DNA from: an uncultured Acidobacteriota bacterium
Lineage (GTDB): Bacteria > Acidobacteriota > Terriglobia > UBA7540
Length of the DNA: 64,000 nucleotides
Assembly: GCA_963804995.1 (NCBI GenBank)
Contig: CAWDSK010000009.1
Location: 288,001-352,000 of the forward strand
Direction: 5' to 3'
The notes below the pieces were generated by a model that made no database searches, was not told the origin of the DNA, and saw only the letters and a list, made by a program, of their open reading frames with translations. Shown here one piece after another: positions 663 through 11,619 of the stretch. The first letter of the stretch is position 1; each line of letters starts with the position of its first letter. The position numbers and the translations under genes were made by a program.

Positions 663-702
663 AAGCCTTCCGATTCCGTTTTTGGGGATGGGAAGGCTTT
701 TT
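663..702 (+). terminator. Riboswitch expression-platform terminator
   Basis: aagccttcc...ggaaggctt stem followed by a T-run, between the aptamer and the likely ATG at 823. Confidence 0.6.
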
Positions 703-822
703 CGTTCTCACCCTCTGGATTCTTTCCGAGCGCCCCGTCGTAAGAGCGGGGAGAAGGAGTCTCGTGTGACCAAGTGCGAATCCACAGGCCGATTATCTCT
801 ACCGGCCAATCCAAGAAAAGAG

Positions 823-3111
823 ATGCCGGCATCGATCAAGATTGCCCGGCCGGCGATCCTGCTGGGCTGGCTATGCGTGTTCCTTGGCGCGACGGGCGCG
901 CAGGCGGCAACCCTGGCAGGGACTGTGTTCGACCCCAGTGGCAGTGCGGTCCCCAAAGCCCACGTTATCCTGCTTAAATCCATGGTGGTCATGGACGAAA
1001 AGCAAACCGCTTCCAATGGAGCGTACGAATTTCAAAACCTCGAGGACGGGTCCTACCAGCTAGTGGCCTATGCGCCGGGCCTCGCCGCCGCTCCCTCCGA
1101 AGTGGAAGTTCGCGGTGCGGAAATCCGCACCCTTGATCTGCATCTGCAGTTGAGCGCCGTCCAGCAGCAGGTGGTGGTATCGGCTTCGCTCGAAGACGCC
1201 CTGGCCTCAGAAGTCGGCGCCTCCGTCTCCGTGGTCACCGGGCAGGACATCAAGGATCGCGCCGCGTTAAACGTGTTGGACGTCCTGGGCGGAATCCCCG
1301 GCGTTGAGGTGAGCCAGGCGGGCCGCTATGGAGGCGTGACCGGTGTCTACGTGCGCGGGGGTGAATCCAATTACAATCTGGTGATGGTGGACGGCATCGA
1401 GCTGAATGAGTTCGGCGGCAGCTTTGATTTCGCTCCGCTCCCTGCCGACGGGGTGGAGCGCGTGGAGGTGACGCGCAGTCCGGAAAGCGCCCTCTATGGC
1501 CCGGGTGCCGTTACCAGTGTTATCAATATCGTGACCACGCAGGGTGAGGGCGTTCCGCATTTTACAGTTCAGGCGGAAGGCGGGAGCTTTTACACGCGCC
1601 GTTTTGTGGTGGGCGGAAGCGGCCTGGACCACGGCCTGAGCTGGGGCTTCGATGTTTCCCGGCTGAACTCCGACGGGGTCGTTACCAACGATCAATACCG
1701 CAATCAATCGGCCTTCCTGAGCTTCGGCTATCACCGCAGCCCGCGCCGCCGCCTGGATTTCCATTTCTTCGGCAACGCCAATGACGCCGGAGCGCCCGGG
1801 CCCTATGGATCGGATCCCGACCAGCTCTACGATGCTCCCATCTACCCCGGAGGTCCGACCGACAGGCAAGCGGGCCTGCTTACTCGCGACAAGCAGAACC
1901 TGTTTGGATGGGAGGGCAGTTACTCCGAGCAAATCACCTCGAATTTCCGGCAGGTCACTACCGGCAGCGTGTCCACCAATGACTATTACTTCAGCTCACC
2001 CCTGGGAGATTCCTACTCCAACAATCTGCGCGGCGTCCTGAACACCCGCAGCGAAGTGGCAATCTCCAACAAAGATTTCTTTGTGGCGGGGTTTGAGTAC
2101 AACCGCGAACAGGTGAAAGACACTTACATCTCGGATTCGAATGGCGCCCCCTTTGTCCTCCCCCGCACCAGTTTGGCTGTCTTCGCGGAAAATCGTTGGA
2201 GCCCCACACACCGCCTTTACCTTACCACGGGGTTCCGCGTGGATGATTTGAGGACGCACGCGCTGCCGCCCGATGATTCCGCCGGCCGGCCACTGCTTTC
2301 ACCCAGCACCATTGTCAAAGTGAATCCGCGCGTGTCGGGGGCGTATATGCTGCGCGAATCGCACGGCGGCTCGCTGGATGGAACCCGCCTGCACGCGAGC
2401 TTTGGCACCGGCATCCGCGCGCCGGATGGGTTCAATCTGGCTTTTACCAACAATCCTCATTTGAAACCGGAACAGAGCATCAGCTTCGATACCGGCATCG
2501 AACAGAGATTCTTCCAAGGCAAGGCGGTCTTGGACCTCACTTATTTCAATAACCATTTCAAAGACCAGATCGTGACGCTGGGGGGATCGCTGACGAACCT
2601 CAGCTCGTTTGCCTCTGATAATCTCGGCAACTCGCGGGCCCAGGGAGCGGAAATCTCATTCCAAATCCATCCCACCCGGTCGCTACAGATGTCGACGGAG
2701 TATACCCGCGACAACACGGCGGTGCTCTCTCTCAATGGATCATCGGAAGTGCTGGCGCCGCTCCAGGTGGGACAACAACTGTTCCGCCGGCCGCGCGATT
2801 CGGGGGCTTACAATCTGACCTGGCATCACGGCCGCCTGATGCTCAATACCAATGCGTACATCCGCGGGACGGTTCTGGATATCGAGCCGAACGATGGAAC
2901 CTTTGCTTGCACTCTCGGCCTGCCCTGCCTGTTCACGAATAAGGGTTACACGCGCGTGGACGGTGGGTTCTCCTACCGCTTGCCGCGGGGCGTGGAAATA
3001 TACGGCCGGCTCGATAACATCCTGAATCGGAAATACGAGGAAGTTTTCGGGTACCCGTCGCTGCCCTTCAACTTTCTCACCGGCGTAAGATTTAGTTTTC
3101 CTGGACGGTAA
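823..3111 (+). CDS. btuB: TonB-dependent receptor, BtuB-like, with N-terminal carboxypeptidase-regulatory-like domain
   Basis: Signal peptide; GTVFDPSG domain; plug motifs VRGGESNYNLVMVDG and ERVEV..SPESALYG; C-terminal barrel strand; B12 riboswitch upstream. Start moved to ATG 823 because 682 lies inside the leader terminator. Confidence 0.85.
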   Translation: MPASIKIARPAILLGWLCVFLGATGAQAATLAGTVFDPSGSAVPKAHVILLKSMVVMDEKQTASNGAYEFQNLEDGSYQLVAYAPGLAAAPSEVEVRGAEIRTLDLHLQLSAVQQQVVVSASLEDALASEVGASVSVVTGQDIKDRAALNVLDVLGGIPGVEVSQAGRYGGVTGVYVRGGESNYNLVMVDGIELNEFGGSFDFAPLPADGVERVEVTRSPESALYGPGAVTSVINIVTTQGEGVPHFTVQAEGGSFYTRRFVVGGSGLDHGLSWGFDVSRLNSDGVVTNDQYRNQSAFLSFGYHRSPRRRLDFHFFGNANDAGAPGPYGSDPDQLYDAPIYPGGPTDRQAGLLTRDKQNLFGWEGSYSEQITSNFRQVTTGSVSTNDYYFSSPLGDSYSNNLRGVLNTRSEVAISNKDFFVAGFEYNREQVKDTYISDSNGAPFVLPRTSLAVFAENRWSPTHRLYLTTGFRVDDLRTHALPPDDSAGRPLLSPSTIVKVNPRVSGAYMLRESHGGSLDGTRLHASFGTGIRAPDGFNLAFTNNPHLKPEQSISFDTGIEQRFFQGKAVLDLTYFNNHFKDQIVTLGGSLTNLSSFASDNLGNSRAQGAEISFQIHPTRSLQMSTEYTRDNTAVLSLNGSSEVLAPLQVGQQLFRRPRDSGAYNLTWHHGRLMLNTNAYIRGTVLDIEPNDGTFACTLGLPCLFTNKGYTRVDGGFSYRLPRGVEIYGRLDNILNRKYEEVFGYPSLPFNFLTGVRFSFPGR

Positions 3112-3312: not shown

Positions 3313-4002
3313 TTGGACACGGGAGGCACAAATTTGCCAAAACAAATCCTTCTCTCCTGGAGCGGTGGCAAAGACAGCAGCATGGCGCTGTACGAAATCC
3401 AGAAAGCCGGTGATTACATCGTGACAGCATTGCTAACCACGATCACAGAAGACTACGACCGCATCAGCATGCATGGAGTGCGCAGGACGCTGCTTGAACA
3501 GCAAGCGGATGCTTTGGGTTTGCCTCTCAAGAAAATCTTGATTCCCAAAGATTCCACCAATGCCATTTATGAATCCCGCATGCGCACACTGCTGGAAGAA
3601 GGACTGCGCGAAGGAATCGATACGGTCGCGTTCGGAGATATCTTCCTGGAAGACCTCAAGGTATATCGGGAGAAGAACCTGGCACAACTCGGCATGAGGG
3701 GCATTTTCCCTATCTGGAAACGAGACTCCTTGGAATTGGCCCGATCGTTTATCCGATTGGGATTCAAGGCGCGGTTAGTGTGCGTGGACACCGCCATTCT
3801 CGATGCGTCCTTTGCCGGAAGGACTTTCGATGAGGAACTTCTGCAAGACTTTCCGCCAAACGTCGATCCCTGCGGAGAGAACGGGGAGTTCCACTCCTTC
3901 GTTTTTGCCGGCCCCAACTTCCGGCGGCAGATCGATCACACCTTGGGTGAGGTGGTGCGAAGAGATCAGTTTTGCTTCTGTGATTTATTGCCTGCCGATT
4001 GA
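3313..4002 (+). CDS. Diphthine-ammonia ligase-like (Dph6/MJ0570) PP-loop ATPase
   Basis: SWSGGKDS PP-loop, FGDIFL, DPCGENGEFHSFV. Confidence 0.88.
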   Translation: MDTGGTNLPKQILLSWSGGKDSSMALYEIQKAGDYIVTALLTTITEDYDRISMHGVRRTLLEQQADALGLPLKKILIPKDSTNAIYESRMRTLLEEGLREGIDTVAFGDIFLEDLKVYREKNLAQLGMRGIFPIWKRDSLELARSFIRLGFKARLVCVDTAILDASFAGRTFDEELLQDFPPNVDPCGENGEFHSFVFAGPNFRRQIDHTLGEVVRRDQFCFCDLLPAD

Positions 4003-4084: not shown

Positions 4085-4333
4085 TCAGATCAACCCGCCA
4101 TCTTTGTGATGGGTTCGCCAGCAATAGAGCTGTTCGACAGCCACTGAAAGCACACAGACCCCGCCCGCGATAGAGACGCTCACCTCAAGCAGATACTGCA
4201 GCATATCTTCGGGGCTGGGGGCGCGGAGCATAATCGCCAAAGCAATTCCGTGACCCACTGCCCAAAGGCCAATAATGGCGCACAGAATCAGACTCACAAC
4301 ACGCAGGGCGGATTTAAGCATAGCCACCCACAC
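4085..4333 (-). CDS. Small hypothetical membrane protein (2 hydrophobic segments)
   Basis: 82-aa ORF with two hydrophobic stretches; no recognised motif. Confidence 0.35.
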   Translation of the reverse strand: MWVAMLKSALRVVSLILCAIIGLWAVGHGIALAIMLRAPSPEDMLQYLLEVSVSIAGGVCVLSVAVEQLYCWRTHHKDGGLI

Positions 4334-4514: not shown

Positions 4515-4991
4515 TTACAGGTTCAGCAGATAATCGGAAGCCGTCAGGTTTCCGAAGCGAACACTATTGACTCGCTCACCCACGACATTTGCGAAGTACT
4601 CAAGAATCACCGTCAGCTTCAAAGCGGCCGGTGTCTCGCGGAACCTCAGCCAGTGTCGCACGGTGAGCAAGAACAGAAACACTTTGAAGTAGAGCATCAA
4701 GAGCTGTTCTTCGTAGCTATAACGTTGGTTAACGTTGGCTGCGTTTTTGAGGAGATAAGTCAGAGCCAGAAAATCACATTTGAGTGTCATCATCAGCCGC
4801 GGGTAATCAACCGGAGCGCCGAAGTCCGCGAGTGCCTTCCGAACCGACGGAAATTCCAATCGATTGGCATTGACGATTGATTGGAAATATTCCTGCGAAA
4901 ACTGCCGTCGCAAAACCTTCTGGCAGGCAGCTTGGAGATAGAAGAAGAAGAGGGCTGTGGATAAAATCAAAATTAGGGTGGTCATAATCAT
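4515..4991 (-). CDS. Hypothetical membrane-anchored helical protein (gene 3 of peptide unit)
   Basis: GAGGTG RBS before ATG 4991 (alternative 4985); N-terminal hydrophobic helix; about 20 bp from the upstream gene's stop. Confidence 0.75.
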   Translation of the reverse strand: MIMTTLILILSTALFFFYLQAACQKVLRRQFSQEYFQSIVNANRLEFPSVRKALADFGAPVDYPRLMMTLKCDFLALTYLLKNAANVNQRYSYEEQLLMLYFKVFLFLLTVRHWLRFRETPAALKLTVILEYFANVVGERVNSVRFGNLTASDYLLNL

Positions 4992-5012: not shown

Positions 5013-5774
5013 CTATTCAGCGCTAGCCGCAACCAAGCCTGCCTGCTTTCCAAGCAGCACTCGAGCCGGAGCTGCTTCTGGTGTTTTGACGACGGCATAG
5101 ACCCACATCGACAACATTCCCAGCGTGCATACGGGTCCCAGGAAGTTGAGAAGTATGCGGGAGAAGTTCTCGCCAGACGTCAAGTGATACAGCGCCAAGC
5201 AGGCGGCCTCGCCTGCGAACTGGATTCCCATTCCACATACCAACATGCTGAGCTGGTCATCCTCAATCGCCAACTGTTGGATCATCAAGTAAAGCATGGT
5301 GTTCAGAACCAGGCAGGTGAAGTAGAGGTTCTGACTAAATTCCACAATGAACACTGATCCCCGGGCGGAGAGTTGCGTATAGTTGCGGGTAAGAGAAAGG
5401 AGCGTAACTCCCACGACCAGAATAAAGACGAATACCAGCAGCATCCGGACAAAGCGCCACAACTTCTCTTCCCTGGTACAGGCGCGGCGGAAGAAGCCAC
5501 AAATCACTAGAAACGCGCCCAGGGCCAGAACAACGTCCGTCAACCAATAGAAAGACGCGAACTGCGCCGAGGTCCGGCCGAAATAATTGAGGGCAGCAGA
5601 ACGAGCTACACCGTCGAGCAAAAAAAGCCCTAACACATAAAGGCCAAGGCCTTTGAGGCGGCGCCACCTTCCTTGTCCTGCCAGTAGTACACAGAGCAGG
5701 ACCTCCAATCCATATCCCGCGTATTGCAGGCCGAAAGAAATGATCTTCTCACCCATAGGCGACACGGAAACCAT
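5013..5774 (-). CDS. Hypothetical 7-TM integral membrane protein (gene 2 of peptide unit)
   Basis: Seven hydrophobic segments by eye, short loops, no soluble output domain. Confidence 0.8.
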   Translation of the reverse strand: MVSVSPMGEKIISFGLQYAGYGLEVLLCVLLAGQGRWRRLKGLGLYVLGLFLLDGVARSAALNYFGRTSAQFASFYWLTDVVLALGAFLVICGFFRRACTREEKLWRFVRMLLVFVFILVVGVTLLSLTRNYTQLSARGSVFIVEFSQNLYFTCLVLNTMLYLMIQQLAIEDDQLSMLVCGMGIQFAGEAACLALYHLTSGENFSRILLNFLGPVCTLGMLSMWVYAVVKTPEAAPARVLLGKQAGLVAASAE

Positions 5775-5828
5775 CCGGTCCCCCCGCGTGCTCCCGTGTC
5801 GCTCAAAATGGGCGTCGGAAGCAACTCA

Positions 5829-6038
5829 CTACGCTGGAGGCGGCAGCGGCATAGGCGTTGTGCCGATTCTCACCGCTCTTGGTGGCGGCAGCGGCATTGG
5901 GGTTGTACCGATGCCAACTGCTTTGGGCGGCGGCAGAGGCATAGGGGTCGTGCCAATGCCAAGAACACTCTGCCGAAGCGACACACTGCTCAGCACTATC
6001 AATAGTGCGAGCACAAACGCCAAAATTGTGTTTTTCAT
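5829..6038 (-). CDS. Secreted repeat-peptide precursor: signal peptide + 3x IGTTPMPLPPP
   Basis: GGAGGAG RBS; MKN + hydrophobic core; 45-nt period repeats whose 11-aa cores differ only at synonymous positions. Confidence 0.85.
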   Translation of the reverse strand: MKNTILAFVLALLIVLSSVSLRQSVLGIGTTPMPLPPPKAVGIGTTPMPLPPPRAVRIGTTPMPLPPPA

Positions 6039-6498
6039 GGACTCTCCTCCAGAAGGTTTTGCAAGAATGACAGCTTTCTGGAATGAGAGCCTATGCGATT
6101 ATTTAACCCAAGTCAATATACTTCCCTACACTTCTGAACCGCTATTATTTTGGCCCATAAGGACCCAATGTCAAGCAAAATCCACAAGATTCAACACTTG
6201 ATTCTCTTTACCAGACTAAAGGTCTCCCCGTACTTTGGCAATAGTACGGGGGTACTGGTCGGAGAATAGAAGCTGTTGGTGCAACAACGTGGTGCTCATT
6301 TGCGCGGACCCGTCTCGTGCGAGCCTGTCGGCAATAAAAGCCACGGAATAAGTCCAGCTATCCCCTTTCGTGCACTATCCCTCAAGTAATTTACAAATGA
6401 CGCTTGGAGCCCCCTGAAATCTTCTACACCGTGAGTTGACCCAACCGGGTATGAATGGCATCATACATTAAAGTTCAAGGTATCGTGGAGAGTGTTGT

Positions 6499-7626
6499 AT
6501 GACTACGAAGAAAGCCTATTTATTGCTCACTTTAGCGCTGGCGGTTGTTGCGGCGCTGGCCATTGCCAGCTTCCCGCGCGCCTGGTTTGCTCAGTCTCCC
6601 ACGCAGACGCCAACCGAGCAGCAACCCACTACTGGCCCACAACCTGACGTGGGAGAGACAGTTCTGGTTCCCAAGAAAACACAGCCGGCGCCGACTGTGG
6701 TGCAGCCCGAGAAGAAGCCCGAGAAGATCAATCCCAATGAGATCTACACCCTGTCCACCTCCACGAACCTAGTCAATGTGGATGTGATGGTGGTTGACAA
6801 CAACGGGAATCCCATCCAGAGTCTGGGGAAGAAAAACTTCCAACTTTCCGACGATGGAGTTCCGCAGGCGATCACCAATTTTGGGACGGGCGAAGCTCCC
6901 ATGACCATATGCCTACTGATTGAATTCAGTAACCGTTGGTGGCCTTACCTGATGGTGGCGCTCCGAGACGCTTACCAGTTTCTGGGCGTGATCCAGCCCA
7001 AGGATTGGGTTGCGGTCGTTTCCTTTGACATGAATACCCAAATCCTCACGGACTTCACTCAGGACCGCTCCCAAGTGAGAGGAGCGTTGGATACACTCCG
7101 TTATCCGGGCTTCAGTGAATACAACCTTTACGACGCGCTAGCCTTTGTCTTGAAACGTATGGAGGAGATTCATGGGCGGAAGGCTATTGTGGCGGTGGTC
7201 AGTGGTATGGATAGCTTCAGCAAGCTAACCTACGATCAGTGCCTGAAGATCGTCAAGGCCTCCGATACGGCCATCTATCCGGTCAGCATCACGGAGTTCA
7301 TTGCGGTGCGTACCAACGATAACATCACCACCTTGCAAGCGAAGAACGCCCTCAACACGATTGCCAGCTACTCCGGCGGCCGCGCTTACTTCCCGCGGTT
7401 TGAAGCGGAGCTACCCTCTGACTACCAGCAAATTGCCGGGCAGCTTCGCATGCAGTACAGTCTGGGGTTTGTTCCGACGAACGCAGCGAAAGACGGTAAG
7501 TTTCACAAGCTTAAGATTGACCTGGTGGACGACCAGGGAAATCCCTACAGACTTGTCAACGAGAAGGGCAAGCAGGTGAAGTACAAGGTCGTTTCGCGTG
7601 ACGGTTATTACGCCCCGAAGAGCTAG
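6499..7626 (+). CDS. VWA domain protein (acidobacterial VWFA-related type), secreted
   Basis: Signal peptide, NLVNVDVMVVD start, LYDAL, GRKAIV..SGMD, QYSLGF, RDGYYAP end. Confidence 0.88.
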   Translation: MTTKKAYLLLTLALAVVAALAIASFPRAWFAQSPTQTPTEQQPTTGPQPDVGETVLVPKKTQPAPTVVQPEKKPEKINPNEIYTLSTSTNLVNVDVMVVDNNGNPIQSLGKKNFQLSDDGVPQAITNFGTGEAPMTICLLIEFSNRWWPYLMVALRDAYQFLGVIQPKDWVAVVSFDMNTQILTDFTQDRSQVRGALDTLRYPGFSEYNLYDALAFVLKRMEEIHGRKAIVAVVSGMDSFSKLTYDQCLKIVKASDTAIYPVSITEFIAVRTNDNITTLQAKNALNTIASYSGGRAYFPRFEAELPSDYQQIAGQLRMQYSLGFVPTNAAKDGKFHKLKIDLVDDQGNPYRLVNEKGKQVKYKVVSRDGYYAPKS

Positions 7627-9480: not shown

Positions 9481-10041
9481 TCAGTCCGCTTTCGTGGCCT
9501 TGAACTTGACTTTGCCTCCCTCTACCGAGACGGAGAACTGGACCTTTTCGCAGCCCAGCGTGTCTTTGATCTGCTTGGTCTTAGTCCGGAGAAATTTCTG
9601 AAAGACGTCAGGATTGAGGCTCTCGGTCGGTTCCCCAACTTGCCGTTTGGCGTCGAGCATGGCGTGCAGGAGTCCCTGCACCTTCTCGCTCTCCGCATCC
9701 GGATCAGACCAGACCACGCGCACCACGCCGTCGGCGGCGGGTATTTTTTTATGCCGCCGCGGCACAATGCCGGTAAGGCTTCTGCCTTCTTCCTTTTCCT
9801 GGAGTTTGCGCCGCCAAAGGTTGGCATTAACCGCATATTTCTGCACGATAGCAGTGAACCGGAAGCGCTGGCTGAAATTGAGTTTGGATTGGTCGCTGGA
9901 ATAACGCTTGATTGTAGACTCAACCCGGTAGAGGGTATCGTGAGGAGGCCGCGGCACACTGCCGTTGAAATACACTTCGTACTCAATCTTGAGGCGGCGG
10001 AGGTCGTCATCCAACTTGTTCAATTCCTCGTCAATTGTCAT
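9481..10041 (-). CDS. MXAN_5187 C-terminal-like domain protein
   Basis: LKIEYEVYF.G..PRPP N-terminus and V.FSVSVEGGKVKFKA C-terminus. Confidence 0.7.
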   Translation of the reverse strand: MTIDEELNKLDDDLRRLKIEYEVYFNGSVPRPPHDTLYRVESTIKRYSSDQSKLNFSQRFRFTAIVQKYAVNANLWRRKLQEKEEGRSLTGIVPRRHKKIPAADGVVRVVWSDPDAESEKVQGLLHAMLDAKRQVGEPTESLNPDVFQKFLRTKTKQIKDTLGCEKVQFSVSVEGGKVKFKATKAD

Positions 10042-10206
10042 GGAAGCGCCTCAAGCCTCGGCCGGAAGTGAAAATTATACTCCCTAGTAAACGAGGCGCG
10101 TCAATCGGAAAGTTGACGGCCATTGCCGACTATGTTGAAATGTCGCCGGCAGCCCAGGGGCGGGTTCTTCGCCTGTTACCTCAGGGGTTCTCAGCCGGAG
10201 CGGGTA

Positions 10207-11619
10207 TGAACTCCCCAAAACATGATTCCGGATCGGAGGCTGGCAGCGTGCTCCGCCAGATCCCGGCGGTGGATGAGCTGCTGAATCGCCAAAGCCTGCG
10301 TGAACTCGAAGCCCGAGTCGGACACCGCTTGGTGGTCGAGGCCACGCGTAAAGTTCTCCAGGGCTTGCGACAAAGGATTGCCGACGGCAACTTGGCCAGT
10401 GTTCCCCTCGAATGGTTAGAGAAGGAAATCGTGGCGGAAGCGGAAGGTGGGGCGGGGTTCTCCCTCCAGCCGGTGATCAACGCCACGGGCGTGATTCTCC
10501 ACACCAACCTGGGACGCGCCCCGCTGGCGAGGGAAGCTCTCGAGCACTTGGTCGAGACTGCCGGGCGTTATTCCAATCTGGAGTACGACCTTGAGCGCGG
10601 TGAACGGGGCAAGCGTGACACGCACACTGACCGCCTCTTCGGCGAGTTGCTGGGTGCGGAGCGGGCGCTGGTGGTCAACAACAATGCCGCCGCTGTTTTC
10701 CTGGCTCTGAACACGCTGGCTGAGGGTTCAGAGGTCATTGTCTCGCGCGGAGAGCTGATTGAAATCGGAGGATCGTTCCGCATTCCGGAGGTTTGCGCGA
10801 AGAGCGGCGCCGTGCTGCGCGAGGTAGGCACGACCAACCGTACACGTGCCAGCGATTACACCGCAGCCATCAACGAGCGCACGCGCGTACTTTTGCGCGT
10901 GCACCCCAGCAACTTTCGCATCGTGGGCTTCACGGAGCGGCCGGGTCTGAATGAACTGGTGGAGCTGGCCCGGAAGCACAACTTGCTGGTCATGGAGGAT
11001 CTGGGTAGCGGATGTTTGGTGGACCTCGCTGCTTGGGGAATGCGGGATGAACCACCAGCCAGCCTCAGCCTGAAAGCGGGAGTGGAGGTCGTAACTTTCA
11101 GTGGAGACAAATTGTTGGGAGGCCCGCAGGCGGGAATTCTGGTGGGTAAACGCGCGCCCCTCGAAGCGCATTCGCAAGAATCCTCTCTTCCGCGCCCTGC
11201 GCGTGGATAAATTGACGGTTGCGGCGTTGGAAGCAACTGTCTCACTGTATTTGCGCGGCCAGCTTGATGCCATTCCCGCCCTGCGGATGATGCGGCTTTC
11301 CCGGCAGGAAATCACTCCACGGGCTGAGCGGTTGGCGGAAAGGATCTCGGAGCGGCTTGGCTTCTTCGCCACCGTCCGGGAGGGGGAATCCCTGATGGGT
11401 GGTGGCTCAACTCCCGGGCAGGGGCTTCCCACTTCCCTCGTGGCCGTCACGCATGCCCGGCACAGTGCTCAGGAGTTGGAGGAAGTTCTGCGCCGCCATA
11501 AGCCCGCCGTGGTGGCGCGCCTGGATCAGAACGAATTGATTCTCGACCTCCGAACTGTTTTCGAAGGTCAGGAGGATGAAATCGTCCGGGCATTTGAACC
11601 ATTGACGATTGATGATTGA
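10207..11619 (+). CDS. selA: L-seryl-tRNA(Sec) selenium transferase, split by a one-base insertion at ~11164
   Basis: VINATGVILHTNLGRAPL, SRGELIEIGGSFR, FSGDKLLGGPQAG in one frame; RIRKNPLFRALRVDK...LDLRTV continues in the next frame; removing one A from ctcgaagcgc restores a single ORF. Confidence 0.93.

Follow-up and report, generated by a model that had tools for sequence, protein, structure and literature searches.

The 64,000-nucleotide stretch of Acidobacteriota DNA analysed here (the window) carries a real, selected, widespread and apparently undescribed three-gene unit that, judged from its sequence, is probably a cell-to-cell signalling system of common soil Acidobacteriota (Table 1). 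Its genes encode a small precursor with identical peptide cores, a membrane protein of predicted GPCR fold and a third, membrane-anchored helical protein. Neither the precursor nor the 247-aa and 158-aa proteins matched a Pfam family, and we found no description of the cassette in the mainly open-access literature searched. What is new is the pairing of a GPCR-fold protein with a multi-core peptide gene. The reading that we favour, and hold with moderate confidence, is a lineage-specific peptide signal: cleavage would follow small residues, a stand-alone GPCR-fold receptor would sense the peptide and the third protein would relay the signal.

Table 1. Features of the cassette and its surroundings in the window
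Feature	Position	Strand	Basis or remark
TonB-dependent receptor	682-3111	plus	Pfam search
Diphthamide-synthase-like ATPase	3313-4002	plus	Pfam search
82-aa hydrophobic ORF just downstream of third gene	4085-4333	minus	no Pfam family
158-aa protein, N-terminal membrane helix and helical bundle; candidate cytoplasmic transducer	4515-4991	minus	AF2 model
247-aa seven-helix membrane protein, candidate receptor	5013-5756	minus	AF2 model, fold searches, topology
Intergenic hairpin burying membrane-gene start codon	5751-5814	minus	z -4.4
Precursor gene, 69 aa	5829-6038	minus	residues 1-27 signal-peptide-like; the rest holds three identical Pro-rich cores of 11 aa
Core 3	5835-5867	minus	preceding linker RAVR (5879-5868)
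Core 2	5880-5912	minus	preceding linker KAVG (5924-5913)
Core 1	5925-5957	minus	preceded by RQSVLG
Signal-peptide-like region	5958-6038	minus	translation read by eye; pattern kept in homologues
Strong Shine-Dalgarno GGAGGAG, precursor gene	6044-6050	minus	sequence
Conserved sigma70-like promoter P2, putative	6088-6116	minus	TTGACT-17-TAGGCT; read from sequence
Sigma70-like promoter P1, putative	6147-6174	minus	TTGACA-16-CAAAAT; 10/12 consensus
VWA-domain gene, divergent	6499-7626	plus	neighbour in 49/104 loci
SelA gene	10035-11210	plus	Pfam search

Purifying selection on exact peptide cores

A sequence-only reading of the window had drawn attention to three cores with only synonymous divergence, and we found the codons of the minus-strand ORF (6038-5829) exactly as it gave them, along with both linkers and the residues preceding core 1. 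The span it marked (5829-5960) holds the cores but takes in neither the signal-peptide-like stretch (6038-5958) nor the other two genes of the unit, which lie downstream; overlooked with them was the key context, the GPCR-fold membrane gene and its partner. Read by eye, residues 1-27 of the precursor comprise a basic start, a hydrophobic stretch and V-L-G directly before core 1. They look like a Sec signal peptide, and the precursor is probably exported. Cores 1 and 2 differ at 7 of 11 codons, 1 and 3 at 6 and 2 and 3 at 4, all silently; at least nine substitutions separate the three copies, every one synonymous (p ~2e-5 in a codon test on this gene alone, with synonymous changes making up about 30% of those possible). 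A second precursor was not found in the same genome.

From 111 unique related precursors we analysed the 79 with Ile-Gly-type cores, leaving out 32 from loci L032-L067 with other core starts; related sequences of this kind are not independent samples. Each of the 79 carries one to nine cores, and adjacent cores are identical over nine residues in 159 of 167 pairs, a pattern that, with RNA contigs lying over the gene in the window, bears out the multi-core precursor design proposed earlier. Across the same 167 pairs pS is 0.42 and pN 0.004 (pN/pS 0.01), against pN 0.28 and pN/pS 0.58 in the three codons that precede the core. Purifying selection thus acts on the exact core, as had been suggested. 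The pattern-free core positions 3, 4, 6 and 8 behave likewise, with 98-100% identity within a precursor and 19-35% between precursors, and the result is therefore no artefact of the search pattern. The expectation that homologues would keep the core from drifting held within each precursor and not between precursors, as 63 distinct core 9-mers occur among the 79; a core stays constant inside its precursor but varies from lineage to lineage. The C-terminal boundary of the core is soft, identity between copies being 0.98 at position 9 but only 0.65 at position 12.

These figures also bear on whether the repeats arose by neutral slippage in a proline-rich, low-complexity tail whose exact sequence has no function. 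Copy number ranges from one to nine and a few arrays have nucleotide-identical core copies, as slippage would produce, but the excess of pS over pN between adjacent copies, the higher pN of the three preceding codons and the p value for the window's own gene make this explanation extremely improbable, in agreement with the earlier dismissal of DNA slippage.

Core number and arrangement vary further among relatives. At loci L148, L150 and L152, two separate, near-identical tandem precursor genes lie upstream of the membrane gene in place of one multi-core gene, and single C-terminal cores with a cysteine pair occur at these three loci and at L069-L071, L143, L145, L146 and L158. Variable copy number (1-9), separate tandem precursor genes and cysteine-looped single cores fit a released ligand better than a spacer.

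The junctions before the cores differ from what the sequence-only reading had supposed, namely that basic residues mark the cleavage sites. In Kex2-type precursors (alpha-factor, dikaritins) the cores are flanked by dibasic Lys-Arg cleavage sites. Here, Lys or Arg stands at -1 of only 4 of 167 internal junctions and a dibasic pair occurs in 4 of 167 linkers (67 contain some Lys or Arg anywhere), whereas Gly, Ala or Ser occupies -1 at 151 of 167 internal junctions and before the first core of 76 of 79 precursors. We therefore rejected basic-residue cleavage for the precursor family. The Arg at -1 of core 3 in the window is an atypical exception, and no change at that residue is among the differences listed for a near-identical RNA contig. 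Signal-peptidase sites follow the (-3,-1) rule; the core junction resembles such a site, repeated before every core, and suggests cleavage after small residues.

Linkage, distribution and expression of the cassette

The precursor is tightly linked to the membrane gene. From 123 unique membrane genes at loci L001-L138 we dropped five with less than 400 nt of upstream DNA and asked for a signal-peptide-like (by hydrophobicity), proline-rich ORF ending just upstream; partial frames were skipped in collecting precursors. Such an ORF was present at 103 of 118 loci under a strict filter and at 109 under a loose one; before control ORFs (long ORFs of the window's own genome) the same filters gave 10 and 412 of 4,887. 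In three of the nine loci missed by the loose filter (L042, L061, L114) a precursor could be recognised by eye, and none was found upstream of 6 of the 118 genes. At more distant loci, an upstream peptide was seen by eye in 14 of 20, two or three of them atypical. Membrane genes that are frame-split or shortened, and one frame-shifting precursor, were encountered at L019/L113, L042, L133, L137, L138 and L083; these may be assembly errors or pseudogenes. Apparent tandem copies of the membrane gene occur at L147 (3077-3868 and 3938-4729), on contig C74 of genome G008 (three) and on C15 of G059 (two).

Named relatives belong to Terriglobia/Acidobacteriota. With a profile of 43 diverse members, the membrane gene was detected in 129 of the 251 class genomes searched, and it occurs in 26 of 301 genomes of a phylum-wide sample, four of these outside the class; the cassette is present in 32 of 35 genomes of the family (unpublished genomes contribute to all three tallies: G075 and G106 to the class and family counts, G295 to the phylum-wide count). 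The window's own genome holds one copy of the membrane gene, no paralogue having been found. At 50% identity the membrane-protein family comprises 2,363 clusters, and matches in the ESM Atlas to both downstream proteins were only nameless Acidobacteriota clusters.

The cassette lies mostly as a single copy among housekeeping genes, and its conserved neighbours are a VWA protein, purH, ffh, pyruvate kinase, tilS, ftsH and a TonB-dependent receptor. Its position beside purH and the VWA gene is stable at about 40-50 of 104 loci, and along with the VWA neighbour the element GTACTATTG is conserved, some 215 nt upstream of the precursor. Our neighbour survey covered a range of about 4 kb (26 cluster representatives and 89 further neighbours), and within it no protease, exporter, modifying enzyme, kinase or response regulator is conserved near the cassette. 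In one family whose members have no third gene (L054, L057, L058, L061, L063), a gene for an AAA_22 ATPase lies about 1.6 kb upstream. Frames 500-700 nt upstream of the cassette at L044-L051 and L056, also of one family, are what we take to be typical of a tRNA gene.

Toxin-immunity loci commonly have a gene for a small secreted peptide ahead of membrane genes. Together with the variation of cores by lineage, this layout would suit a secreted antimicrobial or kin-discrimination peptide, bacteriocin-like or apidaecin-like, to which the two membrane proteins would confer immunity; multi-copy proline-rich antimicrobial polyproteins do exist, apidaecins being the example in the sections of PMC5850478 considered here. 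The cores are, however, mostly uncharged, and no transporter or modifying gene is conserved nearby. Bacteriocin loci are patchy, in contrast to the steady purH/VWA position of the cassette and its occurrence in 32 of 35 family genomes. We regard an antimicrobial role as very unlikely.

Signals for expression are conserved as well. A TTGAC element corresponding to P1 recurs near -137 in homologous upstream regions. P2 has counterparts in ATTGACTT, found in 43 of 76 upstream regions, and TAGGCTCT, found in 36 of 76 at -60 ± 2, and the Shine-Dalgarno motif recurs as CTGGAGGA at -13 in 28 of 76. None of 200 shuffles was as stable as the hairpin between precursor and membrane gene, and 52 of 78 homologous spacers have a hairpin with z below -2, by a cruder shuffle. 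For the start of the membrane gene, homologue alignment led us to reject the ATG at 5774 and to place the start at 5756. A strong precursor promoter and ribosome site, with a buried start codon for the membrane gene, fit an arrangement that would make much ligand and little receptor. In two RNA runs from two metatranscriptome studies, contigs cover 5886-6112 (no differences) and 5733-6041 (four differences), with most of the two downstream genes outside their coverage. As DNA carry-over is possible and contigs cannot rank expression, they hint only weakly at transcription of the precursor.

By coupling precursor and membrane genes, the buried start codon would also suit tethered or cell-autonomous sensing, in which the peptide would be an envelope-state reporter or accessory subunit, periplasmic or anchored, and its seven-helix target would sit in the same cell. 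The anchor would be an uncleaved N-terminal helix, and the peptide would act much as a tethered agonist set free by proteolysis does. The mostly single-copy state of the cassette among housekeeping genes favours such sensing, as does the outer membrane of a diderm cell, which an 11-14-mer may not cross freely. On the other side, 63 cores in 79 precursors, in one to nine copies, suggest that specificity and dose matter, and some lineages have separate tandem precursor genes. Tethered sensing seems to us unlikely in either form.

The predicted GPCR fold and its putative partner

An AlphaFold2 model of the 247-aa protein, built from 30 sequences, has seven long helices (pLDDT 79, pTM 0.74), with membrane helices throughout. 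In a fold search against 48,161 representative chains, the best 50 matches were all GPCRs or GPCR-like folds, and microbial rhodopsins were absent from those 50. A designed GPCR-like fold scored highest (Z 15.0); the sweet receptor TM domain gave Z 13.9 (rmsd 4.3, 217 aligned), yeast Ste2 (PDB 7ad3) Z 11.9 (rmsd 5.0, 219 aligned) and, in a second comparison, mGlu3 Z 14.2 (rmsd 4.8, 218 aligned). Z scores of 13-14 are borderline for helical bundles. Foldseek returned no E below 0.001 for the model (best TM 0.56) and sequence identity to the fold matches is 6-14%; we thus read the match as one of predicted fold at the helical-bundle edge, not as homology. A profile search found no relative of solved structure.

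The charge pattern agrees with a receptor-like orientation. Basic residues number 3.4 per sequence in loop 1, 4.8 in loop 3 and 3.7 in the C-tail, against 0.2-1.1 in the N-terminus and loops 2, 4 and 6; loop 5 is acidic, not basic. The basic loops 1 and 3 and C-tail argue for an N-out/C-in topology, which places the conserved residues R52, W71, D74 and Q142 in the outer half, where close relatives of the protein have conserved polar residues.

Neither Pfam nor NCBIfam has a family for the membrane protein, and its 43 diverse members had no Pfam match, GPCR families included; a single member gave a weak match to the NCBIfam MASE3 kinase (E 0.018). HisKA_7TM, 7TMR-DISM and MASE are known bacterial 7TM sensor domains, and the protein may be remotely related to such domains by fold. 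It carries no kinase domain. A weak search among 8,000 candidates showed no longer forms fused to a kinase or cyclase, and the window's genome, 92% complete, had no match to G-alpha (PF00503).

According to the sections of PMC13581589 considered here, prokaryotes widely use GPCR-like 7TM folds, both in the sensor parts of histidine kinases and diguanylate cyclases and in non-sensors; the fold alone is therefore neither new nor proof of sensing. Unlike the 7TM sensors treated in those sections, the protein described here is stand-alone (the best 150 of its 2,363 clusters span 122-310 aa), belongs to no Pfam 7TM family and has a candidate peptide ligand gene alongside; those sections name no peptide-linked family.

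Core likeness rises with receptor likeness, from 5.2 of 9 residues at 30-45% receptor identity to 8.6 of 9 above 85%, a trend that shared descent alone would also produce. A tree-aware co-evolution analysis of 74 loci gave a weak signal. Only core position 8, in one of five tests, favoured receptor columns of the outer half, its difference of 0.40 exceeding that of all 66 control columns; positions 3, 4 and 6 showed no such lean and the best single columns (z 3.9) stayed within the control range. Outer-half residues 11, 14, 48, 66 and 211, picked by raw column association, disappeared after tree correction. A predicted complex between precursor residues 28-69 and the first 228 residues of the membrane protein (alignment A1) scored 0.01, which counts neither way.

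The third gene lies directly downstream of the membrane gene at 74 of 104 larger loci, and 16 more have a related, shorter form (hhalign probability 84%). Some loci carry a form of about 185 aa with no detectable kinship to the 158-aa protein, and several have no third gene directly downstream. The AF2 model (pLDDT 81) shows an N-terminal membrane helix and basic residues, followed by a helical bundle. Fold searches matched nothing more specific than generic helical bundles, a designed protein giving the best Z (9.4); a match to the anti-sigma70 factor Rsd (Z 7.6, rmsd 4.2, 119 aligned) was indistinguishable from background and was rejected. The protein lacks conserved His or Cys and appears to face the cytoplasm, where it could act as a transducer. 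Among membrane proteins without a third gene, those at L141, L144, L145, L148, L150, L152 and L158 have longer conserved C-tails (about 290-310 aa in total), which perhaps replace the absent partner.

Strict gene linkage, conserved polar residues in the outer half in close relatives and the absence of a dedicated protease nearby could also point to RiPP-like or Agr-like biosynthesis, with the seven-helix protein, together with the third protein, processing, cyclising or exporting the cores. Across the 43 diverse members, however, no residue is invariant (F146, L155, G177 and W218 nearly so), which speaks against an enzyme. With no enzyme fold among the top matches and a third protein that lacks conserved His and Cys and apparently faces the cytoplasm, we judge a biosynthetic role decidedly unlikely. 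Dedicated modifying enzymes or proteases, such as accompany precursors in RiPP clusters (cyanobactins and others), were not found with the precursor within about 4 kb; modifying enzymes may be encoded elsewhere in the genome.

Proposed mechanism, known systems and possible outputs

In the peptide-signalling reading, Sec would export the precursor, and signal peptidase, probably with a general periplasmic or extracellular protease, would cut after Gly, Ala or Ser and so set free a short peptide that begins with Ile-Gly, in one or several identical copies. Core repeats would raise the peptide yield, and the proline-rich tail would withstand trimming. The peptide would bind the seven-helix GPCR-fold protein at the inner membrane, from the periplasmic side, and this protein, without a kinase domain, would hand the signal to the membrane-anchored, four-helix third protein; where the third gene is missing, the signal would probably pass through the longer C-tail. 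As each lineage has cores of its own, a signal specific to self or kin, in the manner of quorum sensing, is probable.

In the Agr and Com systems (AgrD-AgrC, ComC-ComD, ComX-ComP), a lineage-specific secreted peptide is encoded beside a polytopic membrane sensor with a histidine kinase. The cassette likewise sets a lineage-specific peptide gene next to a polytopic membrane protein; unlike those systems, that protein has no histidine kinase, and no response regulator, AgrB or ABC exporter is conserved nearby.

The RRNPPA systems of Bacillota (Rap-Phr, NprR-NprX, AimR-AimP) have tandemly duplicated propeptides and one to four pheromone repeats, as described in the sections of PMC11343458 considered here. 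The cassette resembles them, so far as those sections go, in its small propeptide with a signal peptide (recognised by eye and by the hydrophobicity filter) encoded beside a candidate receptor gene, and maturation by signal peptidase and other proteases with cognate specificity, reported for RRNPPA (PMC11343458), is proposed alike here. It differs from what is described there in its diderm Acidobacteriota host and in cores that are longer, proline-rich, present in up to nine copies and nearly always identical. RRNPPA receptors are cytoplasmic TPR proteins reached by Opp re-import, in the same partial account, whereas the neighbour here is a seven-helix membrane protein without a TPR or DNA-binding domain; no TPR family occurs among the conserved cassette genes and neighbours.

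Yeast MF-alpha1 offers another parallel: its identical cores diverge at synonymous positions, vary in repeat number and evolve in concert, as set out in the part of PMC5850478 considered here. Like the MF-alpha1/Ste2 pair, in so far as that part describes it, the cassette combines a signal peptide and several identical cores with a partner of predicted GPCR-type seven-helix fold; unlike it, it has no Lys-Arg sites, no G-alpha was found and there is no sequence homology. With ligand and putative receptor in one operon, sensing here would be of self, unlike yeast, where it is of the opposite mating type. As for GPCRs at large, the predicted model and charge bias show the seven-helix arrangement with the N-terminus outside, but not sequence homology or heterotrimeric G-protein coupling (no PF00503 match). 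That the unit is a bacterial counterpart of a pheromone-GPCR pair, with a multi-copy prepropeptide, lineage-specific ligands, a stand-alone GPCR-fold receptor, neither G protein nor kinase, and a dedicated transducer, we put forward tentatively, at slightly less than even confidence. None of the unit's genes belongs to a described family, and the defining features of RRNPPA systems (TPR receptor), Agr/Com systems (kinase), Kex2-type precursors (dibasic sites) and true GPCRs (G protein, sequence homology) were not found here; signalling is the putative use of the unit.

Peptide quorum sensing through histidine kinases has been described mainly in Gram-positive bacteria. The same is said of sensing through cytoplasmic TPR receptors in the sections of PMC11343458 considered here. 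If our reading is right, the cassette would be a third design, built around another class of receptor, in a soil phylum that is both abundant and little studied. As a counterpart of the pheromone-GPCR pair it would further represent a new kind of peptide communication, carried by about half of the searched Terriglobia genomes, and a model for peptide sensing by a GPCR fold outside eukaryotes. The 63 cores in 79 precursors are natural specificity variants and would supply ready candidate ligand-receptor pairs for a prokaryotic GPCR-like fold, making peptide sensing by such a fold without G proteins, and kin recognition in soil Acidobacteriota, testable.

No output module is conserved beside the cassette, and individual subgroups offer leads. 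In one subgroup a gene with receiver and HD (HD-GYP-like) domains lies right downstream (L064:4490-5566, L066:4436-5512, L155:4610-5680, L158:5394-6629), a possible, not general, lead to a second-messenger output. Further possible output links are a GGDEF gene close to L156, a gene of the LuxR family close to L147 and, upstream of L141, a histidine kinase. At L032, L033, L035 and L036 an XRE-type helix-turn-helix gene precedes single-core precursors; its product has a cysteine-rich N-terminus and Asn-Gly repeats and is a candidate regulator.
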